Origin: Gammaproteobacteria bacterium
GTDB taxonomy: Bacteria > Pseudomonadota > Gammaproteobacteria > Natronospirales > REEB76
Direction: 5' to 3'
Length of the DNA stretch: 64,000 nucleotides
Assembly (NCBI GenBank): GCA_049591615.1
Contig: JBAWFD010000101.1
Coordinates: 22,882 to 86,881 of the forward strand
A model generated the notes under the pieces. That model searched no databases, was not told where the DNA came from, and worked only from the letters and a program-made list of their open reading frames with translations. This document shows positions 17,457 to 61,554 of the stretch, piece by piece. The translations under genes were made by a program, and so were the position numbers. Numbering within the stretch: the first letter of the stretch is position 1; each line of letters starts with the position of its first letter.

Positions 17457-17459
17457 CAC

Positions 17460-21934: not shown

Positions 21935-22983
21935 ACACTCATCCTTTCCTTCAGGGCCTGGGCAGCAACCCCGATTTCCTACTGCAGAATTTTGACCTGG
22001 CAAATCGTCGTGCACTGGTGGTGCGGGTCAACGAGAGTGTTTACCGGGAAGCATCCTTCCTGGATGACCGCATATTAAATCCCCAGACGGAAGGATTCTG
22101 GCTGCCGCTGGAATCTGTGTTGCAGCAGACGGGCCAGCTTACACCCGCTAAGCCGCACTATATTTTCCATGTTGGGCATTGCGGTTCCACACTCATTTCG
22201 CGTCTGCTCGCGGAACTGCCTCATTGTCTACCGTTGCGGGAACCGATGTCGCTTTTAACTCTTGCAGTTGCCAGACGCGAACTGGGCCGTGTTTCTTCCT
22301 GGTTGACGACTGCGCAATGGAACCAGCTGCTACAGACTGCCATCAGCTCGCTCGCCAGGACTTACCGGAAATCTGATAAATCCCTGATTAAGGTCACCAG
22401 TAATGCAGGCAACCTGCTGGAATCCCTACTACCAGTATCGGAAGGGGACTCGCATATCTTGATGATGTATATCAGTCTGGAATCCTATCTGGCGGTTATG
22501 TTGCGGACTCAGGATCTTCGCGCCAGCATCCATGCTTTTTCACCTGTATGGATGACAGATTTCTGCCGTCTGACGGGAAGAACTGATCTGTGTTTAGCTG
22601 AACTCGGCGATGCACAACAAATCACTCTTAAATGGCTTGTTATCTTGATGCTGTTCGTGCGGGCGGGAACATCATCACAGTCTGAGTCACAATTGCTCAA
22701 CTTCGACAAATTCCTCATGAATCCTCTGGAGCGATTCATGCAGATAACCGGATTATTTAAACTTGAATGCGACATGGAAAAAGCTCGACAGCTGCTTGAT
22801 GGGCCTATGATGCAGAGATATTCCAAGATTCCAACGCAGAGCTTCAATCACACGCAACGCAATAGCGAACTGCGGGACGCGCGTCAGAAATTCCAGCCTG
22901 AGATTAATGCTGGCCTCAAGTGGGCAGAGACGCTATGTCGCGAAATACCCGCACTTGCGTCTGTGGCCGCTTATCTCGGTTAA
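21931..22983 (+). CDS. Hypothetical protein, sulfotransferase-fold-like
   Basis: HYIFHVGHCGSTLISRLLAELPHCLPLREP resembles the PAPS 5'-phosphosulfate-binding loop (G-x-x-R/x-S-G-S-T-L-L...EP). ATGA overlap with kmo. GC is visibly lower (~40-47% in sampled lines). Confidence 0.4.
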   Translation: MNTHPFLQGLGSNPDFLLQNFDLANRRALVVRVNESVYREASFLDDRILNPQTEGFWLPLESVLQQTGQLTPAKPHYIFHVGHCGSTLISRLLAELPHCLPLREPMSLLTLAVARRELGRVSSWLTTAQWNQLLQTAISSLARTYRKSDKSLIKVTSNAGNLLESLLPVSEGDSHILMMYISLESYLAVMLRTQDLRASIHAFSPVWMTDFCRLTGRTDLCLAELGDAQQITLKWLVILMLFVRAGTSSQSESQLLNFDKFLMNPLERFMQITGLFKLECDMEKARQLLDGPMMQRYSKIPTQSFNHTQRNSELRDARQKFQPEINAGLKWAETLCREIPALASVAAYLG

Positions 22984-42736: not shown

Positions 42737-42877
42737 TACATAATCTCCACGATACTGGTTACAGGTTTGATTTCTAACTCCATGTGTTTATTTAGGGCTG
42801 TGAGCTATTCTTATTTACTATCGGAATGAATTTCAAACTGGACAAGAATGCTATGCCCTCTTGAAATTCTGTTCCTG

Positions 42878-43294
42878 TTATAAAACCGGACTTTGAGCGT
42901 TCTGAATACTCCAGTTGTATGGCACGGTGTGGATCATCCGGATGGATGCAGGTGATACCAAATATTTCAATAATAAGCGTCTCGCCTGGGGCGACAGGAG
43001 AACCAGCAAAAAGTAAACCAGGTCTTTAGCTGGAGCAGCAAACGCGGAAAAGAATAACACTCCGATTGATGCCAGGCATACGATACAAACAAAGAAAATG
43101 GTTAACCCTAGACTCATCCAGCGCGCCCAGGGCTTGCCTGCGGCTAGTCCCAAGGCTCCCGTCACGAACAGTGCGCATAACAACCAGCCCAAAAGATCAA
43201 ATTTCGTATGCTGATGTGGATGCCAGGTGAAAACTACGGCTACATAGCCGGCCAGTGAAAGACTGGATATCACCACGAGTGTCCGACGATTCAC
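42878..43294 (-). CDS. Hypothetical small integral membrane protein
   Basis: Four hydrophobic segments, GTG start, lower GC (~48% in a sampled line). No motif recognised. Confidence 0.4.
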   Translation of the reverse strand: MNRRTLVVISSLSLAGYVAVVFTWHPHQHTKFDLLGWLLCALFVTGALGLAAGKPWARWMSLGLTIFFVCIVCLASIGVLFFSAFAAPAKDLVYFLLVLLSPQARRLLLKYLVSPASIRMIHTVPYNWSIQNAQSPVL

Positions 43295-43321
43295 CGGTTT
43301 AATTAGGTCGTTGTTGGGAAT

Positions 43322-44428
43322 TTAAGCAGTAATTGCAAGCATCCGCTCCAATGCGGTCTTTGCCAGTCTTGCATCGGTTTCCGGTACCTTGATCCGATTG
43401 ACTAGGTTGCCTTCGGCCAGATTCTCTAAGGTCCAGGCGAGATGCTGCGGATCGATACGGAACATAGTAGAGCACATGCATACCATGGGCGACATGAAAT
43501 GCACACTGACGCCCTTGTGCTTCACTTCCTCATGCAGGCGGTTGACCAGGTTGAGTTCCGTGCCCACCAGCCAGCGGGAACCGGCTTCGGCAGCATGCAC
43601 AGTCGTCTGGATGAATTCGGTGGAGCCTACATAATCGGACTTCAGACACACCTCGAAAGTGCATTCCGGGTGGCAGATGATTTTGGCAGCGGGATATTTC
43701 TGCTTAAAGTTGTCTATGTGTTCCGGACGGAACATCTGGTGTACTGAACAGTGTCCATTCCATAGCAGGATTTTTGCCTTGATAATTTGTTCTTTCGTGA
43801 GTCCGCCCATGGGCTGGTTGAAATCCCACACGTCCATCTCGTCCATCGGCACGCCCAGTTTGTAAGCGCTCCAGCGGCCCAGATGCTGGTCGGGGAAGAA
43901 CAGCACTTTGCCCCGCTGCTTGAGCGCCCACTCCAGAATCCCGCGGGCGTTGGTGCTGGTGCAGACGATGCCGCCATGTCGGCCGCAGAAAGCCTTCAGG
44001 TCCGCAGCCGAATTGATATAGGTGATGGGCGTGATCTCTTCATCCGGCTCCAGCGCAGTCGCTAGTTCACGCCAGGCCTTCTCCACCTTGGCGAGATTCG
44101 CCATGTCGGCCATGGAACAGCCGGCGGCCAGATCCGGCAACAACACCGTCTGTTCAGGGCGCGAGAGGATATCCGCCACCTCTGCCATGAAATGCACGCC
44201 GCAGAACACGATGGTCTCGGCATCCACCTGGGAAGCGAGGCGCGAGAGCTTAAGCGAATCGCCGGTGAGATCGGCGTGGCGATAGACTTCTTCGCGCTGG
44301 TAATGATGGCCGAGGATCACCGCGCGGCCCCTGAGTTTGGCTTTGGCCGCATGAATGCGTGCGTCGCAGGTTTCTTCTTCGAGCGACGTATACAGATCGA
44401 ATGCCAACGCAGGAACTGCCACGCTCAC
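43322..44428 (-). CDS. nadA: Quinolinate synthase
   Basis: AVILGHHYQ...FCGVHFMAE...CSMA...TSTNA...HPEC. GTG start at 44428 or 44422. Confidence 0.9.
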   Translation of the reverse strand: MSVAVPALAFDLYTSLEEETCDARIHAAKAKLRGRAVILGHHYQREEVYRHADLTGDSLKLSRLASQVDAETIVFCGVHFMAEVADILSRPEQTVLLPDLAAGCSMADMANLAKVEKAWRELATALEPDEEITPITYINSAADLKAFCGRHGGIVCTSTNARGILEWALKQRGKVLFFPDQHLGRWSAYKLGVPMDEMDVWDFNQPMGGLTKEQIIKAKILLWNGHCSVHQMFRPEHIDNFKQKYPAAKIICHPECTFEVCLKSDYVGSTEFIQTTVHAAEAGSRWLVGTELNLVNRLHEEVKHKGVSVHFMSPMVCMCSTMFRIDPQHLAWTLENLAEGNLVNRIKVPETDARLAKTALERMLAITA

Positions 44429-44514
44429 TTACCTCGGAAAGTACCAACTGTAGCCAGATATTTTACTCCTGTGCAGACGATACGGTTTTTGATTACCGAG
44501 GTATTGAATTAGGC

Positions 44515-44550
44515 CTACCCTCTGCCCTTCGTGGGAGAGGGCAAGGGTTA
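44515..44550 (+). repeat. REP-like intergenic hairpin repeat (copy e1, divergent)
   Basis: CTACCCTCTGCCCTTCGTGGGAGAGGGCAAGGGTTA. It lies between nudB and nadA. Confidence 0.55.
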
Positions 44551-44575
44551 GCGGGATTAGGCAAATATAGAAATA

Positions 44576-44611
44576 CCCCTCATCCGACCTTTCTCCCGCA
44601 AGGTGAGAAGG
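44576..44611 (+). repeat. REP-like intergenic hairpin repeat (copy e2)
   Basis: CCCCTCATCCGACCTTTCTCCC-GCAA-GGTGAGAAGG, directly after the nudB stop. Confidence 0.65.
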
Positions 44612-44613
44612 AA

Positions 44614-45051
44614 TTAAGAATTAGGGACGAGCTTCAATATGGCCTCTCTGTCAGTACGGGAACTGGCTTGCCTCGCGGCTTCGTCATGTAGCAGCCAGCA
44701 GTATTCCTTATGTTCCTCGGGATCAAGTTGGACAGCGATGACTGACGGCAAGCATAATGAAAATATGTGCTCGATATTTTCCATCACGTCTGGCGCGAAC
44801 CTGGCGCGCCAGGCAGGATGGATGGGATAGCGATTAACTATGCCGCTGTCGGTAAGGCCTTCATCAACGTCTAATCCAGTTTCTTCACGCACTTCCCGAA
44901 TAGCCGCCTGCCGAGGTGTTTCACCTTGCTCCAGGCTGCCGGTAACTGACTGCCAGAAATCAAGCGGGTCACAGCGACGCAAGCGCAATACTTCTCCATG
45001 ATCGGTGAAAATGACGACCAATACGGAATCGGGGCGCTTGAATTCACTCAT
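44614..45051 (-). CDS. nudB: NUDIX hydrolase, NudB-like (dihydroneopterin triphosphate pyrophosphatase)
   Basis: WQSVTGSLEQGETPRQAAIREVREETGL Nudix box. Normally adjacent to aspS. Confidence 0.75.
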   Translation of the reverse strand: MSEFKRPDSVLVVIFTDHGEVLRLRRCDPLDFWQSVTGSLEQGETPRQAAIREVREETGLDVDEGLTDSGIVNRYPIHPAWRARFAPDVMENIEHIFSLCLPSVIAVQLDPEEHKEYCWLLHDEAARQASSRTDREAILKLVPNS

Positions 45052-45305
45052 AAGCGATTATTAATATGCGCGAATCTTGCCTATTTAATTATAGGCTGAA
45101 TAACCGCATCTGTTGGAAGCAACCTTTTCCCAATCCTTGAATTTTATTCTCAACAGTTTGTTTCCGACAATTGGTATCCGTTAAGCTGACCGCTTGCCAT
45201 GGTAAATAATCCGAAAGTGCAACCGCCATACGAATCAACACAACAAAAAGTTAGGAAACTTGGGGTTATACTCAGTCGTTGCGAGATGCATTCAGGAATA
45301 TTTAA

Positions 45306-46640
45306 ATGAAAGCCATATTTGCGATCATTAGATCACATTCTTTTCTGGTGATCGTATTCCTGTTGCTGGCGCATGCAGTCAATGCCACTCAGGCACATAA
45401 GCACATAATCCTTATGACATACTGGTCTAACGATACAACAAAATATGCGTCTTATCCCATCCCTGGCAGTTTAAATCAAAGTGGAACCCTTCAGCACAAT
45501 GAAGCGCTATTGCAACAATTGAATGCAGTTAATGTCCTTGGCTATGCCTTTTTGCAGGTCGACGGGTCCGGTCATGTATATTTTAGTCGTCCATCTGTTG
45601 ACCTGTCTGAGAGCGACATCACAGGCTTTTGCGTTAAACAGCCTTCAAGTTGTCCACACGTGGTTAACGCATGGTCAGGCAACTTTTCCGCCTTTGCAAG
45701 GCTAGACAACAGGGATCATTCGCTACAAAAGGTAATCTCCATAGGAGGCGCTGGGAGTCAGAAAACCTTTGAAAATGCGATTCACAATCCAGAAACATTC
45801 ATTCAGTCTGCAACCTATCTTATTCATGCATACCACTTGAATGGGATTGATCTCGACTTCGAACCAGATGCGTTTTTTTATTTGCATGAAGGTCAATCAT
45901 ATGCGCAGCTAGTCCTGGACTTAAGGAGAGCGCTTGGCAAGGAAGCATTCATCAGTATTGAGGTGCCCGGCGACTGGGAAACGTTGCGCAGTGTCAATTG
46001 TCCAACCAATAATTCATGTAGTAACAACCTCGGCATTATTGCCGATAATGCTTATGTCTCGCTCATGGGCTTTGACTTTCATGGTCCATATTACCCAGGG
46101 ATGGTTACCAGCAATGACTCGAACCTTTATTGTGATCCAGATGAACCCTTACTTTCAAATTATTATCATGCCAGTGTCAATCAAGCGATCGGATATCTGA
46201 CTTTTAACAAAGTACCAGCCAAAAAGATTATTTTGGGTTTCCCGGCTTATTTCAGGGCCTATGGTGGTGTCGAGGTTGCGCCAGGCAGTTATGGTCTGTA
46301 TCAGCCATTCGATAAATCAAAAACACCAGCTTATGATCTAGGCACGAAGGGAAAAGGCTCTTATCGGGTTGCGAGAAGACTTTTGAAATCGGGATTCACA
46401 CAACATTACCTCCTAGTTAACGACAAGATCAGTGCCGTCTACGCGTATAACGAATCGACTCAGCAATGGATAAGTTACGATGATCAGGTGTCGATTACCT
46501 CTAAAGCTAAGTACGTACTTTCCAGGCGTCTTGCGGGGATGATGATGTGGGAAATTGGGGAAGACATGCCAATTAACAGCCCCACGTCACTTTTACGGAG
46601 CGCACATACCGCTTTATTCAATACGAAGACGGGGCAATAA
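45306..46640 (+). CDS. Secreted glycoside hydrolase family 18 (chitinase-like) protein
   Basis: Signal peptide ...LLLAHAVNA. SIGGAGS and LNGIDLDFE (the DxxDxDxE catalytic motif is retained). GC is low (~45-47% in sampled lines). Confidence 0.75.
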   Translation: MKAIFAIIRSHSFLVIVFLLLAHAVNATQAHKHIILMTYWSNDTTKYASYPIPGSLNQSGTLQHNEALLQQLNAVNVLGYAFLQVDGSGHVYFSRPSVDLSESDITGFCVKQPSSCPHVVNAWSGNFSAFARLDNRDHSLQKVISIGGAGSQKTFENAIHNPETFIQSATYLIHAYHLNGIDLDFEPDAFFYLHEGQSYAQLVLDLRRALGKEAFISIEVPGDWETLRSVNCPTNNSCSNNLGIIADNAYVSLMGFDFHGPYYPGMVTSNDSNLYCDPDEPLLSNYYHASVNQAIGYLTFNKVPAKKIILGFPAYFRAYGGVEVAPGSYGLYQPFDKSKTPAYDLGTKGKGSYRVARRLLKSGFTQHYLLVNDKISAVYAYNESTQQWISYDDQVSITSKAKYVLSRRLAGMMMWEIGEDMPINSPTSLLRSAHTALFNTKTGQ

Positions 46641-46690
46641 TTCTACGTCTTCTATGCCTTTAAACACCTGTGCATCGCTGTTAATTTATT

Positions 46691-47245
46691 TTATGCTAAC
46701 TCCTGCCAATCAAGGATATTGTCTAACGGATGATTCATCACCTTATGCTCAAGAAGCGATTCGCTGATGGCATCTTTTTTGGTTCCAGTCCCGCGCACTG
46801 CTTCGAGGTATACGTTCAGGCTTTTAGTACTGCGTAACACAGTCGCGATCTTCAGATATTCAGGCAATTCAACAGAGCCTTTGAGTTTCAGGATAGCCAC
46901 GCCTTTATTGGAGCTCTTCGCAAAGCCGATCGCATAGGGAATCCACCAGGATTTGCAAGTCTCTTTGCTCACCAAACTCAAGATATGGGTCGAAAGCAGT
47001 ATCCCACGTTCTATGCATTTGGTGACGCGCGCTGGCTCTTTCAGCAATGCATCCATCTCGATGTCGGCATCGGTCTCATCGAAATAAACATCCAGGCCTC
47101 CATGCTCCATGATGTAATTTGCGATCGCATGCACCACGTTCCTGTCGATCTGGAAATGGGATATGTAGATGCAGGATCCGGCATTACCTGCTTTGGCGGC
47201 GAGTGCATGTTGCTCTGTCAGTAATGCTCTATTGCGTCCAGCCAC
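46691..47245 (-). CDS. TIR-like domain protein (orphan)
   Basis: CIYISHFQIDRNVVHAIANYIMEHGGLDVYFDE...ILSLVSKETCKSWWIPYAIGFA follows the bacterial TIR / DUF1863 pattern (FISH..D...L...G..V..D ... S.W...E.G). GTG start preceded by a TAAGGAG SD. Low GC. Confidence 0.45.
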   Translation of the reverse strand: MAGRNRALLTEQHALAAKAGNAGSCIYISHFQIDRNVVHAIANYIMEHGGLDVYFDETDADIEMDALLKEPARVTKCIERGILLSTHILSLVSKETCKSWWIPYAIGFAKSSNKGVAILKLKGSVELPEYLKIATVLRSTKSLNVYLEAVRGTGTKKDAISESLLEHKVMNHPLDNILDWQELA

Positions 47246-47266
47246 ACATCGCTCCTTATGAAATGT

Positions 47267-49051
47267 TTACGGTTCTTTGTGTGCCGGCGGCAAATGCAAG
47301 CAGATATGCAATTCCTTGAGCTCCGCATCATTGACATCCGCGGGCGCGTCAGTGAGCGGATCCCAGGCCGTCTGGGTCTTGGGGAAGGCGATGACCTCGC
47401 GGATGTTGGGGGCGCCGGCCATGTGCATCACCAGCCGGTCCATCCCCAGGGCGATGCCGCCGTGGGGTGGACAACCGGACTTGAGTGCGTCCAGCAGGAA
47501 GCCAAACTTCCTACGCGCCTGCTCATCGCTGATGCCGAGCATGCGGAACACGGCCGACTGCATGTCCTGGTTGTGGATGCGGATGGAGCCGCCACCCAGC
47601 TCGGTGCCGTTCAGCACCAGGTCGTAGGCGCGCGAGCGGATGCCACCCGGGTCCTTCTCCATCGCGGAGACATCATCCACTTTGGGTGAAGTGAACGGAT
47701 GGTGCAGGAAGATCCAGCGCTTGTCCTTCTCGTCCCACTCGAACATGGGGAATTCCACTACCCACAGCGGCGCCCACTCGCCTTGCATCAGGCCTCGGTC
47801 CTGGCCGAGCTTCAGACGCAACGCACCCATCGAGTCGTTCACGATGCGGGCCTTATCGGCACCGAAAAAGATCACGTCGTTGTTGGCAGCGCCGCAGCGC
47901 TTGAGGATGCCTTGCAGGGCGGCATCCGACAGGAACTTGATGATGGGCGACTGCAGACCCTCGCGCCCCTTAGCGAGGTCGTTCACCTTTATATAGGCGA
48001 GACCTTTGGCGCCATAGCGCGCCACAAACGCGGTGCAGTCGTCAATCTCGCTGCGCGGCAGTTCGCCGCCCTTGGGCAGGCGCAGGGCGGCGACCCGGCC
48101 ATCTTTGGCGTTCGCCGGTCCGGCAAACACCTTGAACTCACAATCCTTCACCAGGTCGGCCACGTCCACCAGTTCCAGCCGGATGCGCAGGTCCGGCTTG
48201 TCGGAGCCGTAACGGCGCATGGCTTCGTCGTACGGCATGCGCAAAAACGGATCGGTCAGCTCGACGCCCAGCACTTCCTTGAAGGTGTGCCGGATCATGC
48301 CCTCGGTGATGTCCATGACCTGGCTCTCGTTCAGGAACGAGGTCTCGATGTCGAGCTGGGTAAATTCCGGCTGGCGGTCGGCACGCAGGTCCTCATCGCG
48401 GAAACAGCGCGCGATCTGGTAGTAGCGGTCGAAACCCGACATCATCAGCAACTGTTTGAACAGCTGCGGCGACTGCGGCAGTGCGAAGAACTTGCCGGGA
48501 TGGGTACGGCTCGGCACCAGATAATCGCGCGCGCCTTCCGGCGTGGGCTTGGTGAGGATCGGGGTCTCCACATCGATGAAACCCTGCTGGTCCAGATGGC
48601 GGCGCAGTGCGTTGATGATGCGGTGGCGCAGCCGCAGTCGCTGCTGCATCACCGGCCGGCGCAGATCGATATAACGATACTGGAGCCGGCGCTCTTCGTT
48701 CACATCGTCTTCATCGAGCATGAAGGGCGGGGTTTCGGCACGATTGAGCAATTGCATCTCCTGCGCCAGCACTTCCACCTTACCGCTGGGCAGGTTCGGG
48801 TTTTCCGTGCCCTGGGGGCGGTGGCGGACCTTGCCTTTCACGCTCACCACGAATTCGCTGCGCAGGCGCTCCGCATCGACGAACAGCTCCGCACGCTCCG
48901 GATCGAAAACCACTTGCACCAGGCCTTCCCGGTCGCGCAGATCGACGAAGATCACGCCACCGTGGTCGCGACGCCGGTGTACCCAGCCAGCGATGCGGAT
49001 CTCCTTTTCCAGTAGGGTTTCGTTGACCTGGCCGCAATAGTGAGTACGCAT
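47267..49051 (-). CDS. aspS: Aspartate--tRNA ligase
   Basis: MRTHYCGQV...[19 protein letters not shown]...[18 protein letters not shown]...GGIALGMDR. Start at the second ATG (49051). Confidence 0.95.
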
Positions 49052-52115: not shown

Positions 52116-52146
52116 CTCACTCCCTCTCCCACAAGGGGGAGAGGGA
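52116..52146 (+). repeat. REP-like intergenic hairpin repeat (copy c)
   Basis: CTCACTCCCTCTCCC-ACAA-GGGGGAGAGGGA, just after the ABC transporter stop. Confidence 0.7.
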
Positions 52147-53073: not shown

Positions 53074-54150
53074 TTACACCGGGTAAGCTCCGACACTGTT
53101 TAATAATCCAACCGCTTCATCAAACCCTTGCGCGATATTCATATTCTGCACTGCCTGTCCCGCCATGCCCTTCACCAGATTATCCAGCGCAGCCATGAGC
53201 ACCACGTTTCCGTCTTTCTCATGTACGGCGAGGTCGCAGAAATTGCTGCCCACAACAGCAGCGACACGCGGTGTGTCTTCCACCAGCCGCACGAACGGCG
53301 CATCCCGGTAGAAGTCCATACATTTTTTCCTGAGTGACTTCGCGTTCAATCCGATAGCGGTCGGTGGGTGTAGTTGTACAGTGGCAAATATTCCTCGCAC
53401 CAGCGGCGCTGAGTGCGGTACGAAGGCCAAGCTATAACCATTGGTTTTTTCTGCATCCAGCAGGCGTGTAACTTCCGCTTCGTGTTGATGATTCAGCACT
53501 TTATAAGCACGAAAGTCATTGGCACGCGTCGGGTGGTGCGTAGTCTCGGTGGGCGTGGCGCCGGCGCCGGATGAACCGGTGGTCGCGCTCACCGCGATGA
53601 ATCCCAGGTCTTTCAGTCCTGCCAGCGGCAGCAGGGCGAGCTGGATGGCGGTGGCGAAACAGCCGGGGCTGGCGATGCGCCTGGCGCCTTTGATCTTTTC
53701 TGTTTGCCATTCCGGCAGACCATAAACAAAACTGCCAAGCGCCTGTGGGTACGGATGTGGTTTTCCGTAGGCACGCTCGAAGGCTTCCGCATCATCCAGC
53801 CGGAAATCACCGGATAGATCGATGAGCGTGAGTCTGTCCGATAGTTTGTGCTTCGACCAATCCGCTTCCAGACCAGCCAACTGTTGCGCCAGTTCGAAAT
53901 GCGGCATGGCGGAAAACACTATGGGATTGTCCGATTCCGCGAACGCAGACCAGTCGGGCTGTGCCTCGAAGTTGCCGTCCACCAGGCTGCGAAGGTTTGG
54001 ATGTACTTTCCAGAACGGTTGGTCCGCGTATTTGCGCGAGACGGCGCGGATACTCTCCACCTGCGGATGCTGCGACAGCAGCCGCAGTAGTTCGCCGCCG
54101 CCGTAACCAGAGCCACCCAAAATATAAACACTGATTGTTGTCGTTGTCAT
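53074..54150 (-). CDS. argC: N-acyl-gamma-glutamyl-phosphate reductase
   Basis: VYILGGSGYGGGELLRLL...ASPGCFATA (active-site Cys). Confidence 0.9.
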   Translation of the reverse strand: MTTTTISVYILGGSGYGGGELLRLLSQHPQVESIRAVSRKYADQPFWKVHPNLRSLVDGNFEAQPDWSAFAESDNPIVFSAMPHFELAQQLAGLEADWSKHKLSDRLTLIDLSGDFRLDDAEAFERAYGKPHPYPQALGSFVYGLPEWQTEKIKGARRIASPGCFATAIQLALLPLAGLKDLGFIAVSATTGSSGAGATPTETTHHPTRANDFRAYKVLNHQHEAEVTRLLDAEKTNGYSLAFVPHSAPLVRGIFATVQLHPPTAIGLNAKSLRKKCMDFYRDAPFVRLVEDTPRVAAVVGSNFCDLAVHEKDGNVVLMAALDNLVKGMAGQAVQNMNIAQGFDEAVGLLNSVGAYPV

Positions 54151-54162
54151 GCTTGTGTTGCT

Positions 54163-54197
54163 CCTTCTCCCTGCGGAAGAAGGTTAAGATGAGGGGG
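54163..54197 (-). repeat. REP-like intergenic hairpin repeat (copy b0)
   Basis: The minus strand reads CCCCCTCATCTTAACCTTCTTCC-GCAG-GGAGAAGG. It is head-to-head with copy b. Confidence 0.65.
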
Positions 54198-54199
54198 AA

Positions 54200-55312
54200 T
54201 TATTCACCCCTCACCCTACCCTCTCCCACAAGGGGAGAGGGTGAAAGAGAGACTTTCGTAGTGTTCACAACCCCACGCTTGGCAATTACATCCAGCAGAT
54301 GATTGCCGAGCGCCTTTGCATGGGTAAGCGCATTGATCGCAGGCTTGTCTACAGCACGTTCTACAAAACGTACGCCCACATTATTGTCGGTACACGGACC
54401 GGTGACCAAATCCACATCGATGTCGTACTCACTCCGCAGATGCTCCACGCCACCGGCCACGCCCACCGGATCATTGGCGCAGAACACGAAGGCCGCGGTC
54501 AGCGCGCGCAGTTCCGCATCCGCAAGTATCGCCTGCACGCCATATTCGCCCATGATGCCGTCGCCGGTCTCCGCTACGATGACATCGAAACGGCGTGTGG
54601 AGAGTTCCGCGAAGATGGTCTTGGCCACCTGCGCCGCGCTCTCCGGTCCGGTGCATGCAATGCCCGCGTCGGTGAAATCCAGCGTCACTTCGGCACCATA
54701 GTCGCGCATGCTCAGTGTATCGCGCATCAGGGAGACGCCGGTGAGCTTGGCACCGCCCACGCGGTAACCCGCCTGACTGAGCCTGCGCACGATTGCGCAA
54801 GCGGCGGCTGTCTTACCGGCGTTCATGCAGGTGCCGGCCACGTAGATGACTTTGCAGTTAGGCACCTTGCCATCCGCTTTGAGCGCGCCCATGCGGATAT
54901 TCGCGGGTTCCCCGAGCCGCGACTGGAACTCCGGGTACACCAGCACCTGGCCCAGCACCTCGAACTCGAAAGGTTGGCCCACATCCGGGTTGTGGGATAT
55001 GCATTCGCCGATGACGCCGCCCATATTCAGGATGTGCAGCTTCTGGCCGGGCGCAACGCTTTTCGGCAGCACACCTTCGTAACCATGCAGGGCGTTGCGA
55101 TGACCCAAAGCGCCCACCACGATGTCGTCGCCGTGCAGCACGTTCAGGCGGCCGTGTACATCCTCCAGCTGGTTATAGCCGGACTTGTCGCCAAGGATGC
55201 GGCCCGCCAGCACCGCGCCGTGTTCCGCGCGCACCTCGGCTGACAGGGTGAGCATGCGATCCAGCTTCAGGTTGCGCGTAACTGATGCGATCTTGTCCGC
55301 GCTGATCCTCAT
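54200..55312 (-). CDS. Uncharacterised protein with an unassigned N-terminal domain and a C-terminal dethiobiotin-synthetase/CobQ/DUF1611-like P-loop domain
   Basis: ATGA overlap with the argG stop (55309-55312). Walker-A-like VAGTCMNAGKT (aa 158-167) and DVIVAETGDG (aa 243-252). The last ~15 aa (SLSPSPLVGEGRVRGE) are encoded by a REP-like repeat. Start set at MRISADK. Confidence 0.6.
   Translation of the reverse strand: MRISADKIASVTRNLKLDRMLTLSAEVRAEHGAVLAGRILGDKSGYNQLEDVHGRLNVLHGDDIVVGALGHRNALHGYEGVLPKSVAPGQKLHILNMGGVIGECISHNPDVGQPFEFEVLGQVLVYPEFQSRLGEPANIRMGALKADGKVPNCKVIYVAGTCMNAGKTAAACAIVRRLSQAGYRVGGAKLTGVSLMRDTLSMRDYGAEVTLDFTDAGIACTGPESAAQVAKTIFAELSTRRFDVIVAETGDGIMGEYGVQAILADAELRALTAAFVFCANDPVGVAGGVEHLRSEYDIDVDLVTGPCTDNNVGVRFVERAVDKPAINALTHAKALGNHLLDVIAKRGVVNTTKVSLSPSPLVGEGRVRGE
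54205..54243 (+). repeat. REP-like intergenic hairpin repeat (copy b)
   Basis: CACCCCTCACCCTACCCTCTCCC-ACAA-GGGGAGAGGGTG. It overlaps the 3' end of the unknown arg-operon CDS. Confidence 0.7.
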
Positions 55313-56505
55313 TTGTTTTCTCCTGCACGTAACGCAAGTATCTGCTGCACGCCATAGAGTTTGGCGAAACCCGCGGCCTCCGCGCCGCTCCACAGACGGT
55401 TGGCTTCACCATAACTTGCAACTTTGGCATCCATAAGTGAACGCGGCGAGCGCACGCCATCCACAGCAAACGTGCGCGGATACAGCGTGAGTTTCACCTC
55501 GCCCGTCACCGGTTTTTGGCTGGACTTCAGGAAGGCTTCCAGATCCCGCGCCAGAGGATCAAAGAAATGGCCTTCATGCAGCAATTGACCGTAGAGATTG
55601 CCCAGGTTGTCCTTCCAGAATTGCTGCTTGCCGGTGAGGGTAAGTTTTTCCAGCTCACGATGTGCACCGATCAGCAGATGCGCCGCCGGCGCCTCGAAGC
55701 CGACGCGTCCCTTGATGCCCAGGATGGTGTCGCCCAGATGCACGCCGCGGCCGATTCCGTATGGGCGGCCGATAGAATTCAGTTCTGCGATGAGCGCTAC
55801 CGGATCCAACGATTGACCATCTACAGCAGCAGGCACGCCCTGCTTGTAGCCCAATGTCATGGGCCTGGATGTGAGTTTCGCGGCATCGATCTCACCGCCG
55901 GGAAACACCGCTTCCGGTAGCACACTCCAGGAATCCAGCGTCTCGCGTCCACCCACGGAGGTGCCCCACATGCCTTCGTTCACGGAATAATGTTCGGTCT
56001 TTTCAGGAAGCTCGAAGCCGTGCTTCTTCAGATAGGCACGCTCCTCGGCACGGCTCAATGCCAGCGTGCGGATCGGGGTGATGAGTTCCAGTTCGGGAGC
56101 CAGGGCGCGGAATGCCACGTCGAAACGCACCTGGTCGTTGCCGGCGCCGGTGGAGCCGTGCGCCAGTGCGGTGGCGCCGAGTCTCTTTGCAAGCGCCACC
56201 ACTTCCGCCGCCTGGGCCACGCGCTCCGCCGATACACTCAGTGGATACAGATTGCCGCGCAGCACGTTGCCATAGATGAGATAGCGAAGATAACGGTCGA
56301 AGAGATCCGCGCGCGCGTCGATGGTGTGATGGGCTTGCGCGCCCAGTTTCGGAGACAGGTCTTCGATGCGCCGCAGTTCCCCGGTACTGAAGCCACCAGT
56401 ATTCACCGTGACGGTGGTGACCTGGTAACCCTGCTCCCGAAGATGGATGACGCAGAAGGAGGTATCCAGTCCGCCGGAGAAAGCCAGCACTACATGTTTA
56501 GTCAT
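55309..56505 (-). CDS. argG: Argininosuccinate synthase
   Basis: VVLAFSGGLDTS...AHGSTGAGNDQVRF. Start at MTKHVV (56505), an 8-nt overlap with argH. Confidence 0.93.
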   Translation of the reverse strand: MTKHVVLAFSGGLDTSFCVIHLREQGYQVTTVTVNTGGFSTGELRRIEDLSPKLGAQAHHTIDARADLFDRYLRYLIYGNVLRGNLYPLSVSAERVAQAAEVVALAKRLGATALAHGSTGAGNDQVRFDVAFRALAPELELITPIRTLALSRAEERAYLKKHGFELPEKTEHYSVNEGMWGTSVGGRETLDSWSVLPEAVFPGGEIDAAKLTSRPMTLGYKQGVPAAVDGQSLDPVALIAELNSIGRPYGIGRGVHLGDTILGIKGRVGFEAPAAHLLIGAHRELEKLTLTGKQQFWKDNLGNLYGQLLHEGHFFDPLARDLEAFLKSSQKPVTGEVKLTLYPRTFAVDGVRSPRSLMDAKVASYGEANRLWSGAEAAGFAKLYGVQQILALRAGENK

Positions 56506-57886
56506 GCCACTCACCACCGATCTTCTTATGCCAGATGTCTTTTTCACATTTTTCAATACGGCTTCGAGTCGCCGAGATCCAGCGTTCTGCGTGTTTGCAT
56601 TCTTCCGCGATGGAGCCCAGCCCCAGGTTGTCTAGGCCACCAATATGGATAGACTTCAATGCTTGGCGATCCGGCTTGAACGTTCCATCCTGCAGCTGCT
56701 GCGCGACTCGCTGGTATGCATCGCGGAACGGGACACCCTGCTGAGCCAAACGGGTGGCTTCATGGGCGGCATACAGCTCATCGCCACAGGCAGCGCGTGC
56801 GCGCTCGGCATTTACTTTAAGACCCGGCACCAGTTGCACGAGCGTGGCCAACAACGCGTGCGCCGTATCCAGGGCTTCGAACAGCGGTTTTTTCAACAAC
56901 TGGAAGTCGCGGTGGTAATTGGATGGCAGGCCGCCGGCCAGCTCCTGCAGCATCGCCACATGCCCGCGCAGTTCGCGGCAGCGGGCACGCGCCAGCTCCA
57001 CCACGTCCGGGTTGCGTTTCTGGGGCATGATGGACGAGCCGGTGGTGAAGGCCTCTGGTAACTCCAGGTATCCGAATTCAGGCATCGAATACAGCGCCAC
57101 ATCCCAGAGAAACTTCTCCAATACCAAGCCGATGGATGCCATCCCATTCACCAGAGCCAGTTCATGGCGGCCGCGGGAATTCATCACATCGGCGGGGCTG
57201 ATCTGAACGCCGGAGAATCCCAGTAGCCCGGCGAGATACTCCCGATCAAGCGGTAGGGGCACACCGAAACCGGCGGCAGCGCCCAGAGGGCAGCGGTCCA
57301 GGCGTGCGTATACTGCCTGCATCGCCTGCAGTTCTTCCCCGAGTCCCGCAGCGAACGCACCCGCCCACAATCCAAAACTCGAAGGCATGGCGCGGCGCAG
57401 ATGCGTGTAACCCGGCAGGCTCTCATCTGCATGTGCATGCGCGAATTGGATGAATGCATCCGCTAGCTGTGCAGTCTGTTTTGCGATACTGAGCAAAGCC
57501 TCGCGCATGTACAGGCGCAGCGCCAAGATTACCTGGTCGTTGCGCGAGCGGCCCAGATGGATGCGTTTGCCCGCATCACCCAGTTGTTGCGTGAGCAACT
57601 GCTCGATGGCGGTGTGGCAGTCTTCCTGAGCCGGGTCGATACCGAGTTCGCCAAGGCGCGCGTGTAACGCGATCTTGGCCAAGGCATCCACCAGCACCTG
57701 AGCATCTTTCAACGCTATCAGACCCGCGTGCGCCAGCATGCGTGCATGCGCGGCGCTGCCGAGCGCATCGAAACTCAACAGGCGCTTATCCAGTTCCGGA
57801 TCATCGCCCACGCTGAGGCGATGCATGGCTGCGTCCAGCGGTAGACCCTTTTCCCAGAGACGCGATGGACCTTTTGCGTCGTTCAT
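56498..57886 (-). CDS. argH: Argininosuccinate lyase
   Basis: GRSRNDQV and GSSIMPQKRNPDV signatures. ATGA overlap with argB. Confidence 0.93.
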   Translation of the reverse strand: MNDAKGPSRLWEKGLPLDAAMHRLSVGDDPELDKRLLSFDALGSAAHARMLAHAGLIALKDAQVLVDALAKIALHARLGELGIDPAQEDCHTAIEQLLTQQLGDAGKRIHLGRSRNDQVILALRLYMREALLSIAKQTAQLADAFIQFAHAHADESLPGYTHLRRAMPSSFGLWAGAFAAGLGEELQAMQAVYARLDRCPLGAAAGFGVPLPLDREYLAGLLGFSGVQISPADVMNSRGRHELALVNGMASIGLVLEKFLWDVALYSMPEFGYLELPEAFTTGSSIMPQKRNPDVVELARARCRELRGHVAMLQELAGGLPSNYHRDFQLLKKPLFEALDTAHALLATLVQLVPGLKVNAERARAACGDELYAAHEATRLAQQGVPFRDAYQRVAQQLQDGTFKPDRQALKSIHIGGLDNLGLGSIAEECKHAERWISATRSRIEKCEKDIWHKKIGGEWHD

Positions 57887-58803
57887 GCGGCCTGCACTTT
57901 GCTGCCGGTCTCGCGCGCCACGATCATGGTGCCGCTACCCTGGTTGGTGAAGACTTCCGTGAGCACCGCGTCCGGCTGGATGCCGCTCACCAGATGCGCG
58001 CTGTGCACGCCGCCACTGAGGGCGCGGCGCGCCGCTGCCAGTTTGGGGCGCATGCCGCCGCTGACCTTGCCGCTCTTCTCCAGCTGCTCCGTCCCTGACA
58101 GCGTCGTATACGGCACCAGGCTCGAGGGCCTTGCCAAATCCTCCAGCAGTCCCGGCACCTTCAGCAGAAAGAACAGTTTCTCCGCTTTGAGTGCCACTGC
58201 GATCTCGGCGGCTACCGTATCGGCGTTGGTGTTGAACACCTCGCCCTTGTCGTTCGCCGACAGCGGTGTGATCACCGGCACATAGCCGCCGTCCAGTAGA
58301 TGCGTGAGCAGCGCCGGATTCACCCGGTCGATGTCCCCGACCAAGCCAAAATCCACGAACTCGATCTGGCCGGCGTCATTCTTGATCTGCACCGGCTGGC
58401 GCTTGTGGGCGGAGAGGATATCGCCGTCCACGCCGCTGACGCCGCTCACCGGCAGGCCGGCCGCGCGCAGGTCCGCCAGCAGATCGGTATGCACCGAACC
58501 AGCCAGCACCATCTTGGCGGCTTCCAATACCTGCTTGGTGGTCACGCGCCGGCCCGCGATCTTCTCCACCGGCAGATCCAGGGATTCACACAGGGCGTCC
58601 AGTCCGCTGCCGCCACCGTGCACGATCACCAGCTTGATGGAGAAGCTCCACAACACGTTGAGTTCTTCGCACACGGCGCGGCGCGTGGCGGCGTTCTCCA
58701 GCACCTCGCCGCCTAGCTTAAAGACGAAGATCTTGCCGCGGAAGGCGCGCACGTACTGGGCCGCGGAGCGTAGCGACGCATAACTGTCAGGTGACATGGA
58801 CAT
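57883..58803 (-). CDS. argB: N-acyl-glutamate kinase (stand-alone, no fused NAGS domain)
   Basis: IFVFKLGGEVL...VIVHGGG...NTNADTVAAEIA. 306 aa. Confidence 0.9.
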   Translation of the reverse strand: MSMSPDSYASLRSAAQYVRAFRGKIFVFKLGGEVLENAATRRAVCEELNVLWSFSIKLVIVHGGGSGLDALCESLDLPVEKIAGRRVTTKQVLEAAKMVLAGSVHTDLLADLRAAGLPVSGVSGVDGDILSAHKRQPVQIKNDAGQIEFVDFGLVGDIDRVNPALLTHLLDGGYVPVITPLSANDKGEVFNTNADTVAAEIAVALKAEKLFFLLKVPGLLEDLARPSSLVPYTTLSGTEQLEKSGKVSGGMRPKLAAARRALSGGVHSAHLVSGIQPDAVLTEVFTNQGSGTMIVARETGSKVQAA

Positions 58804-58818
58804 GGTTAATCTCCCTCA

Positions 58819-59817
58819 TCAGTTCAACAGCCGGTGCAGCAGCACCCGCTGTACATGGAAACGGTTCTCGGCCTCGTCGATGACGCGGCTGTGGGTGCCG
58901 TCCAGCACTTCATCGGCCACTTCCACATTGCGCCGCACCGGTAGGCAATGCAGGAAGATCGCATCGCTGCTCGCACGGGATAATGTTTTATCGGTGATCA
59001 GCCAGTCTTTGTGGGCGGCGATGCGCGCCGTCGCGCCATCCGCTGCCACCGGTTTGGTCGCCGGACCCCAGGCCTTTGCATAGATGACCTGGCTACCGCT
59101 CACAGCATGCTGTTGATCCGTAGTGACCGTCACCAAACCACCGCTTTGCCGTGCATAGGTCTGCGCCTCAGCCAGCACCGCAGGATGCAGATCGAAACCC
59201 GGTGGATGCGCGACCCGCACTTCGCAGCCAGCAGCCGCAGCCGTGAGTAAAAACGAATGCGGTACGGCTTTCGGCAGCGATTTGATATGCGGCGCCCAAG
59301 TAAGCGTCACCGGCAGTTTCTTCGTTGTCCCGAAACTTTCACGCACTGTCAACAGATCCGCCAACCCCTGGCAGGGATGTTCGCGTGCTGACTCCATGCT
59401 GATGACCGGCACGCCCGCCAGCTCACAGAAAGCGTTCATCACCGGATCAGCTGCGTCCGCATCATCGTCCTGGAGCGCGCCGAACGTGCGCACCGCCAAC
59501 GCGTCCACATAACGGCCCAGTACCGGGATGGCTTCGCGGATATGCTCCGGCCGGTCGCCGTCCATGACCACACCTGTGCGGTCTTCCAGTTTCCAAATGC
59601 CGCTGCCCACCTCCAGCACGATGGCATGGCCGCCGCCGCGCAACATGGCGGCTTCGAATGAAGCACGTGTGCGCAGCGAGGGATTGAAGAACACCATGCC
59701 GAGAATCTTGTGGGCCAGATGCGCACCGGGCGTTTGGTTTTTCCAGGCCAGTGCTTCGGCGAAAACATTTGCGACGCCGGCCACACCCAGATCGGCGATG
59801 CGGGTGAAATGCTTCAT
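58819..59817 (-). CDS. argF': N-acyl-L-ornithine carbamoyltransferase (AOTCase/SOTCase family, Pro at the specificity position)
   Basis: FFNPSLRTR, VVMDGDRPEHIRE, HPCQGLADL, YAKAWG, HCLPVRRN and DEAENRFHVQ closely track my recollection of Xanthomonas AOTCase. Classical OTCase would have HPTQ. Confidence 0.85.
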   Translation of the reverse strand: MKHFTRIADLGVAGVANVFAEALAWKNQTPGAHLAHKILGMVFFNPSLRTRASFEAAMLRGGGHAIVLEVGSGIWKLEDRTGVVMDGDRPEHIREAIPVLGRYVDALAVRTFGALQDDDADAADPVMNAFCELAGVPVISMESAREHPCQGLADLLTVRESFGTTKKLPVTLTWAPHIKSLPKAVPHSFLLTAAAAGCEVRVAHPPGFDLHPAVLAEAQTYARQSGGLVTVTTDQQHAVSGSQVIYAKAWGPATKPVAADGATARIAAHKDWLITDKTLSRASSDAIFLHCLPVRRNVEVADEVLDGTHSRVIDEAENRFHVQRVLLHRLLN

Positions 59818-60971
59818 GCCGCCATGCCTTCAGTCTGAAAAGCTGCAATGCTCGCCAGTAATTTTTCCACGGCTTGATCAGTGACAGTCAGCGGCGGCAT
59901 GAGTCGTAATATCCCTGGGTCGTCGGAACCGCCCACCAGAATTTGGTGTTTCAATAAATGGGTTTTGAGTGCCTTGGCTTGTGTGGCCGCATCCAGCCCC
60001 AGCAACAGACCTTCGCCGCGTACTTTGAGTACGACCCCATTGCTCAGGCCGCTGCGAATAGTTTTCGCCAGATTATTGGCACGCTCCATCAGATTCTCGT
60101 CGACGATCACCTTGAGTGTCGCGATCAGCGCTGCACAAGCCAAGGGACCGCCACCAAAAGTGCTACCGAGATCGCCGGGTTTGAGGGCTGAGGCCACCCC
60201 ATCGTTCATAAGCAGGCCGCCCATGGGCACGCCCGAGGCCATACCTTTCGCGCAGGTAATCATGTCGGGCGTAACGCCATAGAAATTCGCCGCAAACGGC
60301 ATGCCCAATCGGCCTATGCCGGTTTGCACCTCATCAAAAATCAGCAGTGCGCCGGCTTGCGTGCATTTCTGCCGCAGCGCAGAAAACCATTTCGCGTTCG
60401 CAGTTTTCACGCCGGCCATGGACTGGATCGGTTCCACGATCACCGCCGCTACCTGCGAGAAATCAGCGGATTCGAGTGCCGCAGGGTCCGCGAACGGCAG
60501 GAATTGGGTCGGCGCCAATAACGTCTGGTAATCCTTTCTCAAGGCCGACGAATCGGTGACCGACAGCGCCAGTAACGAGCGCCCGTGGAACGCGCCCTGA
60601 AACGCGACCAAGTGGCTGCGTCTGGTGAGCTTGATGGCGACCTTGAGAGCGCTCTCATTGGCTTCGGCGCCGGAGTTGCAGAAGAACACCGCTGCCATGC
60701 CAGCGCCACCGAATTCCACCAACGCTTGCGCAGCCCGGTCACGCACCGGCAACTGTGCGGCCGCCGAATAGAAGATCAGCTTGCGGGCCTGCTCGGTGAT
60801 GGCCGCGGCTACCGCCGGATGGCAATGGCCGGTGCTGGCCACGCAATGGCCACCGTAGAAATCCAGGTAGGCCATACCCTGGTCATCGAAAACCCGCTCG
60901 CCTTGTCCTGAGACCAGCGGAAATGGGTATGGCGCATAGGTGGGGAGTAACGGTGAAACAGCGGTTTTCAC
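59814..60971 (-). CDS. argD: N-acyl-ornithine aminotransferase (class III PLP)
   Basis: YLDFYGGHCVASTGHCHP...LIFDEVQTGIGRLG...TFGG. GTG start at 60971 preceded by GGGGGG. ATGA overlap with argF'. Confidence 0.88.
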   Translation of the reverse strand: MKTAVSPLLPTYAPYPFPLVSGQGERVFDDQGMAYLDFYGGHCVASTGHCHPAVAAAITEQARKLIFYSAAAQLPVRDRAAQALVEFGGAGMAAVFFCNSGAEANESALKVAIKLTRRSHLVAFQGAFHGRSLLALSVTDSSALRKDYQTLLAPTQFLPFADPAALESADFSQVAAVIVEPIQSMAGVKTANAKWFSALRQKCTQAGALLIFDEVQTGIGRLGMPFAANFYGVTPDMITCAKGMASGVPMGGLLMNDGVASALKPGDLGSTFGGGPLACAALIATLKVIVDENLMERANNLAKTIRSGLSNGVVLKVRGEGLLLGLDAATQAKALKTHLLKHQILVGGSDDPGILRLMPPLTVTDQAVEKLLASIAAFQTEGMAA

Positions 60972-61030
60972 CGGGTCCCCCCAAATAAATATGCATGCAT
61001 GGATGAATAAAATGGTGGCAGTTCGTATAT

Positions 61031-61068
61031 AATGCGACTTTATACAAACTAATGCGAAATAATGCAAG
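61031..61068. promoter_or_regulatory. Two tandem ARG-box-like sites in the argD/argR divergent region
   Basis: AATGCGACTTTATACAAA (61031-61048) and AATGCGAAATAATGCAAG (61051-61068) compared with the E. coli consensus wnTGAATwwwwATTCAnw. They are spaced 20 bp start to start. A further ATGCAT/ATGAAT half-site cluster lies at 60990-61008. Confidence 0.4.
61039..61067 (-). promoter_or_regulatory. Candidate sigma70 promoter of the arg operon overlapped by the ARG-box-like sites
   Basis: Minus strand TTGCAT (61067-61062), 17 nt, then TATAAA (61044-61039). This is about 70 nt upstream of the argD GTG. Confidence 0.3.
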
Positions 61069-61137
61069 GGTTCGCGTTTATTTATTCAGTCAGAGGCCCA
61101 GGTCTTTACAGCACACAAATGCCGGGTTCGGGAAAAA

Positions 61138-61554
61138 ATGACACTCGATGAAGCCATCCTACAGTTGGTGGAACAGCGTGAAATCACCGATCAATCGGTT
61201 TTTTTGGGCCTGTTGAAACACATCGGCCATGCGGTCACCCAGCCGACCCTGTCACGACACATGAAGAAATTGGGCGTCCATAAGGTGACCGGCCGTTACC
61301 AGCAGGTCGAACCGTTGCCGGAGAAACTGCCAGTCTTCTCCCTCACCCAGGTGCCGCCCAATCTGGTGATCATCCGTACGCGCCCCGGTTATGCCCAGCC
61401 ATTGGCGGTCAAACTTGATCAGCAGAAGATCGAAGGTGTCGGGGGCACGCTAGCAGGTGATGACACGGTGTTCATCGCCGTGGCTTCGCCGGCCAGGTTC
61501 AGGGCAGTGGCCGATGCCGTAGAGGTGTTGCTATCCGGCGGAGCGGCTGCCTGA
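61138..61554 (+). CDS. argR: Arginine repressor
   Basis: N-terminal wHTH (ITDQSVFLGLLKHIGHAVTQPTLSRHMKKLG) and a C-terminal GTLAGDDTVFI oligomerisation/arginine-binding motif. Divergent from the arg operon. Confidence 0.85.
   Translation: MTLDEAILQLVEQREITDQSVFLGLLKHIGHAVTQPTLSRHMKKLGVHKVTGRYQQVEPLPEKLPVFSLTQVPPNLVIIRTRPGYAQPLAVKLDQQKIEGVGGTLAGDDTVFIAVASPARFRAVADAVEVLLSGGAAA

Follow-up and report, generated by a model that had tools for sequence, protein, structure and literature searches.

A two-domain P-loop protein of a gammaproteobacterial arginine operon is predicted to form N-succinyl-L-glutamate

Introduction

Arginine synthesis begins with the N-protection of glutamate, a textbook step, and the locus described here raises the question of which protein performs it. 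The window analysed (64,000 nucleotides of contig JBAWFD010000101.1, assembly GCA_049591615.1, from a gammaproteobacterial metagenome-assembled genome, MAG) carries an arginine operon with one gene outside the canonical set, at 54200-55312 on the minus strand and referred to here as X. The 370-residue product of X is probably the enzyme that forms N-succinyl-L-glutamate at the first step of the pathway, in place of ArgA or ArgJ, as judged from its genomic context, its neighbours and its predicted structure.

A role of this kind has been proposed before. Price et al. (bioRxiv 10.1101/2024.10.14.618325, 'GapMind 2026') predicted that ACG33_RS14135 of Steroidobacter denitrificans is an N-succinylglutamate synthase: the gene lies in an arg cluster, the host grows without arginine although it has neither ArgA nor ArgE, and homologues are virtually always found in arg operons and never alongside ArgA homologues. 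The same study reported that 90% of the neighbouring ArgF' proteins carry A, P, S or V at position 92, and that Foldseek gives a remote match to the D-glutamate acetyltransferase DgcN (7XRJ, E 1.4e-7). Like X, ACG33_RS14135 is a hypothetical protein in a gammaproteobacterial argR/argD/argF'/argB/argH/argG/argC cluster with a succinyl-type ArgF'. Because these descriptors match and X is the sole conserved extra gene, X is placed in the ACG33_RS14135 (A0A127FCT3) family, by description and not by alignment. The link between gene and role is not new, since it already stands in the preprint as a prediction. What is new here is that membership of the DUF1611/DgcN family fails, that the catalytic motifs are of the dethiobiotin synthetase (BioD) type, that the N-terminal domain has no solved counterpart and that an ATP-dependent ligase becomes an alternative; the preprint is silent on these residues and on the novel N-terminal domain, as well as on the acyl donor and on the fusion of X to ArgB.

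Glutamate-succinylating enzymes have, according to a review, been identified in Bacteroidetes only. The enzyme in question, the GNAT-type N-succinylglutamate synthase BT3761 (a homologue of Cabys_1732), has the role proposed here for X and also works with a succinyl-type ArgF'. The two differ in fold, GNAT in BT3761 against a beta domain plus a P-loop domain in X, and the role of BT3761 is genetically supported.

The arginine operon of the window

Genes of the window were assigned with Pfam and NCBIfam profiles. From 53074 to 60971, the list of open reading frames (ORFs) has seven on the minus strand, which follow one another in the order argD-argF'-argB-argH-argG-X-argC. The operon starts with argD (59814-60971), a class-III acyl-ornithine aminotransferase gene with a GTG start that scores under its subfamily cut-off, followed by argF' (58819-59817), which encodes a knotted acyl-ornithine carbamoyltransferase (NF003384, 408 bits) with an N-succinylornithine signature. 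Next come argB (57883-58803; TIGR00761), whose 306-residue product is the kinase domain alone, without an acetyltransferase domain, then argH (56498-57886; TIGR00838), argG (55309-56505; TIGR00032), X itself (54200-55312) and argC (53074-54150; TIGR01850, 345 bits). Junctions are tight, with 4-nt ATGA overlaps at 59814-59817, 57883-57886 and 55309-55312, while argH and argG share 8 nt at 56498-56505. At the third of the ATGA overlaps, where the argG stop meets the X start, the two genes have AAATGAGG in common, and AGGAG lies 9 nt 5' of the X start; the alignment of homologues, which begins at the first residue of each, places that start at the ATG at 55312. A first-pass annotation of this DNA had described the same seven packed genes and overlaps, and the coordinates of these genes and overlaps stand; the divergent repressor gene argR (61138-61554, plus strand) is added to its list.

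The operon appears to lack a canonical enzyme to feed it. The approximately 55 ORFs scanned across the 64-kb window include no gene for a GNAT, ArgJ or M20 deacylase (ArgE), which bears out the earlier statement that the cluster has no N-acylglutamate synthase or ArgE. X shows no Pfam, NCBIfam or fold match to the classical synthases (GNAT and the N-terminal nucleophile, Ntn, fold of ArgJ). Indeed, no family in Pfam or NCBIfam reaches threshold against X, and NCBIfam gives only weak MobB/CobB-like P-loop matches. The exact sequence is deposited as MGA9855517.1 ('hypothetical protein', Gammaproteobacteria MAG), and NCBI labels members of the family either 'hypothetical protein' or, misleadingly, 'DUF1611 domain-containing'.

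A conserved place in arginine clusters

Relatives of X are numerous, with more than 6000 in a collection clustered at 90% and 1366 representatives at 50% clustering. Similarly, a scan of one genome per species with a 17-sequence X alignment as the query returned at least 596 matches in ten or more phyla. For the analysis of context, arg genes were placed by tblastn in 82 related loci, which span at least 10 phyla and include uncultured Gammaproteobacteria, Woeseiaceae, Lysobacterales, Holophagaceae/Geothrix, other Acidobacteriota, Myxococcota, Bdellovibrionales (Bdellovibrionota), Chthoniobacterales (Verrucomicrobiota), Phycisphaerae/Planctomycetota, Gemmatimonadota and Elusimicrobia.

X lies directly upstream of argC in every locus with downstream room (74/74), and argG precedes it in 74 of 79 loci, so that the arrangement is far from chance. 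The first-pass annotation had said that loss of the arg-operon context in relatives would count against its proposal, and these adjacencies show the context to be conserved. Two layouts occur, argR< argD argF' argB [argE] argH argG X argC and argR argG X argC argD argF' argB argE argH, and the adjacency of X and argC is kept in both. In the 49 loci of at least 15 kb, argF' is found in 48, argB in 48, argH in 47 and M20 argE in 36, while argR adjoins the cluster in 40.

X is the sole conserved non-canonical gene of these clusters, the next-largest ORF family being present in 6 loci. Clustering of the other ORFs yielded no GNAT or ArgJ within 10 kb on either side across the 82 loci; ArgB is kinase-only in these clusters, and the gene spacing leaves no room for a fused GNAT. 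Because all later steps are encoded, usually with M20 ArgE among them, and one gene is left unexplained, an N-acyl-glutamate synthase is the one step that the clusters lack.

The occurrence of argE also refines the earlier picture. Orthologues of X with 63-69% identity, from Myxococcota, Holophagaceae and Chthoniobacterales, sit in clusters with M20 ArgE, and the clusters without M20 argE include those of the window clade (L003-L010), of Woeseiaceae (L065, L068, L076 and L082) and two others (L031 and L049). The absence of argE noted by the first-pass annotation is therefore correct for the window clade but not a property of the family. As a separate observation, a 458-residue gene product is encoded 3' of argC in four acidobacterial loci (L014, L019, L035 and L037); by eye it resembles an M20-type dipeptidase or deacylase, and it is either additional to the in-cluster argE or a substitute for it.

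The carbamoyltransferase points to succinylated intermediates

The identity of the acyl group could be read from ArgF'. A review of transcarbamylases gives E92, N185 and K302 as the marks of acetyl enzymes, and A/S/P/V/Q, P and V/I/E at the same positions as those of succinyl enzymes. In ArgF' of the window, P90, P182 and E299 occupy the positions of E92, N185 and K302 of the Xanthomonas enzyme, and the best match in the PDB is 3L04, the E92P mutant of the Xanthomonas N-acetylornithine carbamoyltransferase, to which P90 aligns at that position. Since the window enzyme has this P/P/E combination, the product of X is expected to be N-succinyl-glutamate and not N-acetyl-glutamate. The remark of the first-pass annotation that the carbamoyltransferase is 'Pro-type' was right.

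The signature extends to relatives. In the 67 ArgF' proteins encoded beside X, Glu never occurs at position 92, where 66 have A, V, P, S or T; 66 have P at position 185, and all 67 carry E, V or I at position 302. The protein is succinyl-type at all three positions in 66 of the 67 loci, so that the co-occurrence of X with succinyl-type acyl-ornithine carbamoyltransferases, proposed earlier as a check, is seen in these loci; the ArgF' of a distant cluster (L086, described below) has P/P/E as well. On this signature, the pathway is predicted to run on N-succinylated intermediates, as in Bacteroides.

A fusion to the kinase and other distant relatives

Further evidence for the position of X in the pathway comes from a gene fusion. 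In P0198, a full-length X that shares 39% identity with that of the window precedes an acetylglutamate-kinase-like domain, which matches the window ArgB from end to end with 31% identity. The fusion is present on four contigs from three Joint Genome Institute (JGI) metagenomes, including L083 (7884-9881), L084 (5960-7957) and L085 (285-2282), with an X part of 37-39% identity; the gene caller had cut its N-terminus, and the ORF extends upstream over the whole N-terminus of X. It adjoins an arginase-family gene, outside any arg operon. The fusion connects X with the reaction immediately ahead of that of the kinase.

It mirrors NAGS/K, the ArgA-ArgB fusion of Xanthomonadales, in which the acylating part is instead a GNAT domain that uses acetyl-CoA (coenzyme A, CoA). 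NAGS/K, as described in a review, offers a precedent for an N-acylating enzyme fused to the kinase and for co-evolution with a knotted ArgF'. A second apparent fusion, of X to ArgC (P0213, 687 residues), was dismissed, the gene call being frameshifted and of low complexity.

More distant relatives occur in other settings. Locus L086 is a low-GC arg cluster (carA carB argG argF' X argC argB ... argD) with an X that is 29% identical to that of the window, and in it an AstE/AspA-family domain is fused N-terminally to ArgH (10869-13076). The AstE/AspA family comprises succinylglutamate desuccinylase and aspartoacylase, which makes the ArgH-fused domain a plausible N-succinylcitrulline desuccinylase; an AstE-like domain of this type was found neither in the window nor in the other fetched loci. 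In L088 (8001-10878) and L089 (1234-4111), an X-family member of 31% identity overlaps the start of a RimK/glutathione-synthetase-type ATP-grasp gene, with a second ATP-grasp gene convergent to it, on an archaeal-looking contig (aS21, LAGLIDADG) with no arg genes nearby.

Architecture of X and its catalytic motifs

The AlphaFold2 model of X, built from a 74-sequence alignment, has a predicted local distance difference test (pLDDT) score of 95.7 and a predicted template modelling (pTM) score of 0.91, and consists of two domains. DSSP assignment of the models shows the N-terminal domain (residues 1 to about 148; 54869-55312, minus strand) to be all-beta; modelled alone, it reaches a pLDDT of 96.4. 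Compared with the PDB by Foldseek, 7XRJ, 2G0T and 2OBN included, this domain has no solved counterpart (best E 0.37, TM <= 0.33), in keeping with the earlier statement that the first 150 or so residues could not be assigned. Near-invariant residues in it are S10, G32, E50, R72, G80, P83, G99, G102 and G121, of which S10, E50 and R72 are candidate binders of a dicarboxylate substrate.

The C-terminal domain (residues about 150-345; 54278-54865, minus strand) is an alpha/beta P-loop domain of the SIMIBI class, similar to dethiobiotin synthetase. Its Walker A motif, GTCMNAGKT, covers residues 160-168 (54809-54835, minus strand); the longer string VAGTCMNAGKT, reported earlier as residues 158-167, is present but runs to residue 168. 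The codon of the invariant K189, 22 residues past the P-loop Lys, is at 54746-54748 (minus strand), and a Walker-B-like strand, DVIVAETGDG (residues 243-252; 54557-54586, minus strand), carries E248, which aligns to E115 of BioD. Counted in the 74-sequence alignment, G166, K167 and K189 are present in 74/74 sequences, T168 in 73/74 (with one Ser) and E248 in 73/74. A Cys-thioester mechanism, which the GTCM motif might suggest, was rejected as C162 of the P-loop is conserved in only 37 of the 74.

Foldseek searches of X against the PDB match the C-terminal domain only, with Ffh/FtsY (GTPases of the signal recognition particle, SRP), BioD, HypB and MeaB-like proteins among the hits, and the comparison with dethiobiotin synthetase 1dts gives E 1.4e-6 and TMt 0.56 over 221 columns. 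By phmmer against the PDB, the match is to the P-loop of dethiobiotin synthetase only. Alignment of the C-domain profile to E. coli BioD by hhalign has 84% probability over 101 columns, from the P-loop to Walker B.

X resembles BioD at least as closely as DgcN

The first-pass annotation had raised membership of DUF1611, the family of DgcN, and it had described the C-terminal domain as a SIMIBI-type fold. The fold and motifs stand, with BioD among their closest matches, whereas the DUF1611 assignment does not. The Pfam DUF1611 model scores 16.7 bits against X, where the cut-off is 25, and covers residues 148-186 and profile positions 5-45 of 201; PF07755 membership, understood as a score above gathering over most of the profile, fails for X. 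Any DUF1611 match at all occurs in 23 of 74 family members and involves the P-loop part of the profile only, and the same part accounts for the two myxobacterial homologues that reach the cut-off (25.7 and 26.4 bits). Matches to MobB and CbiA are as common as those to DUF1611 among family members, and matches of the family to the curated AAA_26, CbiA and BioD models are all under the gathering scores. Moreover, the Rossmann-like DUF1611_N domain gives no Pfam match in X, and the model is all-beta there instead.

Structural and profile searches agree with this result. The DUF1611 structures 7XRJ, 2G0T and 2OBN are not among the best 50 Foldseek matches of the full X model, and profile and sequence searches of the PDB with family alignments or the C-domain fragment returned FtsY, BioD and MobB and never DgcN, 2G0T or 2OBN. 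The core sequences of the three structures were reached only with a DUF1611-like consensus, and hhalign of the C-domain profile against these cores gave 47% probability over 30 columns, a comparison handicapped by the 112 residues compared per chain. Their motifs, GTDxxxGK[M/R]xT, ATGQTG and EGQGS, contrast with GTCMNAGKT, AKLTG and ETGDG in X, and the three structures have no Lys at the position of K189. Literature searches on DUF1611, PF07755 and DgcN gave nothing relevant or passing mentions.

DgcN (PF07755 + PF17396; 7XRJ; EC 2.3.1.312) does share features with X, namely two domains, a length of about 340-350 residues and a BioD-like P-loop C-terminal domain. It also N-acylates the amino group of glutamate, as is predicted for X, but the enantiomer (D-glutamate) and the acyl group (acetyl) differ. 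BioD, in turn, is both the best sequence-level match of X among solved structures and a top fold match. BioD and X have in common the Walker A motif GTxxxxGKT, a second Lys (K37 and K189, respectively) and the Walker-B Glu (E115 and E248), with the same 22-residue spacing from K15 to K37 in BioD as from K167 to K189 in X; hhalign and phmmer each align both the second Lys and the Glu. From the BioD group, which includes the CobB/CobQ amidases and the synthetase domain of CTP synthase, X differs by its additional 148-residue beta domain and its substrate. Judged on its sequence and model, X is not a bona fide DUF1611/DgcN member; its resemblance to DgcN is at the superfamily level, and its link to DgcN is no closer than that to dethiobiotin synthetase.

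Predicted pathway and acyl donor

In the proposed pathway, X would form N-succinyl-glutamate, which ArgB would phosphorylate, ArgC reduce and ArgD transaminate, each acting on a succinylated intermediate, before carbamoylation by the succinyl-type ArgF'. A desuccinylase would then remove the succinyl group; this would be the M20 ArgE of the cluster in most relatives and, in the window clade, perhaps an enzyme encoded elsewhere. ArgG and ArgH would complete the synthesis of arginine.

How X would activate the succinyl group could be explained in two ways. Tentatively, and somewhat short of an even chance, X may be a Mg-ATP-dependent ligase (succinate + ATP + Glu -> N-succinyl-Glu + ADP + Pi), in which the P-loop domain would make succinyl-phosphate for attack by the glutamate amino group, with the beta domain presenting the glutamate; the succinate freed by the desuccinylase would be directly reused. 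In the BioD group, an oxygen is phosphorylated and an amine then displaces the phosphate, a chemistry that suits the ligation of succinate and glutamate. A ligase is a real alternative because the catalytic motifs of X match BioD rather than DgcN, and there is a slight lean towards it: X keeps the full set of Mg-nucleoside triphosphate (NTP) and phosphoryl-transfer residues of the BioD group without variation, DgcN lacks two of them, and the top fold matches of X are true NTPases. ArgX, as described in a review, provides a precedent, since it protects the amino group of glutamate at the expense of ATP on the way to arginine; unlike X, ArgX/LysX-LysW combines an ATP-grasp enzyme with a carrier protein. 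The other possibility, nearly as likely as the ligase, is that X is a succinyl-CoA-dependent transferase like DgcN.

Several points weigh against this account of X or parts of it. DgcN, to which the preprint reports its Foldseek match, uses acetyl-CoA, which favours CoA chemistry over ATP, and to our knowledge DgcN is the only SIMIBI-fold enzyme that N-acylates glutamate. Conservation of the motifs is no proof of ATP use, since P-loops can bind the diphosphate of CoA. The scan for argA and argJ in the X-bearing MAG spans its 64-kb window, and in the window clade the desuccinylase is also unaccounted for, which leaves two gaps for one extra gene. Members of approximately 30% identity occur outside arg operons, so the wider family is not monofunctional and may include other glutamate-directed enzymes. 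As in the preprint of Price et al. (10.1101/2024.10.14.618325), the role of X is a prediction; we infer the reaction that it catalyses.

Alternative explanations

The two gaps of the window clade lend themselves to other readings. X could be the missing deacylase, an N-succinyl- or N-acetyl-citrulline hydrolase in place of ArgE, given that in-cluster M20 argE is absent from the window clade, from Woeseiaceae and from a few further loci and that Steroidobacter is likewise without ArgE (preprint 10.1101/2024.10.14.618325). This is very improbable: M20 ArgE is usually in the same cluster, orthologues of X coexisting with it in 36 of the 49 long loci, X has no hydrolase or metallopeptidase fold or motif and no Peptidase_M20 match, and the fusion to ArgB points to the start of the pathway. 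A single extra gene would also suffice where ArgA and ArgE are both absent if X were an ArgJ-like transferase, with glutamate receiving the succinyl group of N-succinylcitrulline or N-succinylornithine. There is just as little chance of this, as X has no similarity to ArgJ (Ntn fold) and no conserved nucleophile in the P-loop (C162 again), its orthologues coexist with ArgE, and an intact Mg-NTP site would be purposeless in an energy-neutral transfer. Of the acyl-handling steps offered by the first-pass annotation, deacylation and ArgJ-like recycling are thus disfavoured by the M20 ArgE beside X and by the variable C162, respectively, whereas N-acylation of glutamate, which it had preferred, is supported by the context, the fusion and the co-occurrence with ArgE.

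The fold itself suggests two further roles. SIMIBI NTPases are often chaperones, and the top fold matches of X include SRP GTPases, HypB and MeaB/ArgK-like proteins, so that X might be an accessory P-loop NTPase, such as a metallochaperone comparable to HypB, UreG or MeaB, or a factor for assembly or regulation. We consider this unlikely, though less so than the deacylase or the ArgJ-like transferase, because X is present where the metalloenzyme ArgE is not in the cluster, has no NKxD-type guanine motif and has a second, strongly conserved domain in which Arg, Glu and Ser residues typical of small-molecule binding are invariant; moreover, such a role would leave the ArgA step without an enzyme in organisms for which growth without arginine is reported, and X is fused with the kinase ArgB. 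An L-glutamate N-acetyltransferase that is like DgcN and uses acetyl-CoA would be consistent with the acetylation of D-glutamate by DgcN (EC 2.3.1.312) and with the NCBIfam name of the neighbouring carbamoyltransferase, an 'N-acetylornithine' enzyme. It is slightly more doubtful still than an accessory NTPase, since ArgF' is succinyl-type in 66/67 loci with Glu never at position 92, the window ArgF' finds its best PDB match in the E92P mutant and DUF1611 membership fails.

If X is an N-succinyl-L-glutamate-forming enzyme, its family would fill the succinylation gap in at least 596 species-representative matches, with soil Acidobacteriota, Myxococcota, Gemmatimonadota and Planctomycetota among the carriers, and systematic false 'arginine auxotroph' calls would vanish from metabolic reconstructions. 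Should it be a ligase, it would represent a CoA- and carrier-independent third way of protecting glutamate, after GNAT/ArgJ and ArgX-LysW, and the relatives beside RimK-type ligases would then point to a broader family of amide ligases directed at glutamate.

Regulatory features and other genes of the window

The 3' end of X is unusual. A GC-rich hairpin resembling repetitive extragenic palindromic (REP) sequences lies at 54218-54242, inside X and before its stop, and encodes the tail ...SLSPSPLVGEGRVRGE. The last 19 or so codons of X lie in this hairpin; the tail is not conserved, has a low pLDDT and is absent from the 351-residue relatives in the same 90% cluster. Folding of the hairpin RNA gives -36.6 kcal/mol with a z of -3.8, and the structure may serve, between X and argC, to stabilise the mRNA or as an attenuator. 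A second copy is present at 52117-52145, in the intergenic region between an ATP-binding cassette (ABC) transporter gene and a short-chain dehydrogenase/reductase (SDR) gene, and the common core of the two copies is CCCTCTCCCC(C)TTGTGGGAGAGGG.

The AT-rich region between argR and argD (60972-61137) contains three GCATTA repeats (ttGCATTAtttcGCATTAgtttgtataaagtcGCATTAtata) and presumably holds divergent promoters and an ArgR operator; a sigma-70 consensus promoter above chance was not found in it, and inside the arg operon no promoter or terminator signal exceeds chance. The repressor gene argR itself is assigned by Pfam and NCBIfam. In ArgH, TIGR00838 covers residues 31-396 of 462, and the C-terminal 65 or so residues (...CEKDIWHKKIGGEWHD) match ASL_C2 weakly, so that this C-terminus appears atypical.

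Elsewhere in the window, three ORFs at 2453-4171, 4237-5127 and 21931-22983 (572, 296 and 350 residues) have no Pfam match (E <= 1e-3 to 1e-5). Lower GC content (0.49-0.52 compared with approximately 0.58 elsewhere) marks a patch at 42000-48000, in which nadA lies with a NUDIX gene, a gene for a GH18 chitinase and an ORF of 184 residues (46691-47245) whose TIR-domain match, at 25.3 bits, is under the threshold of 28. At 16935-21934 and 43322-44428, the window combines a kynurenine-pathway block, with genes for 3-hydroxyanthranilate dioxygenase, an ACMSD-like amidohydrolase, a cyclase/formamidase, kynureninase and a flavin adenine dinucleotide (FAD) monooxygenase, and nadA (quinolinate synthase). 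The organism may therefore have both routes to quinolinate.

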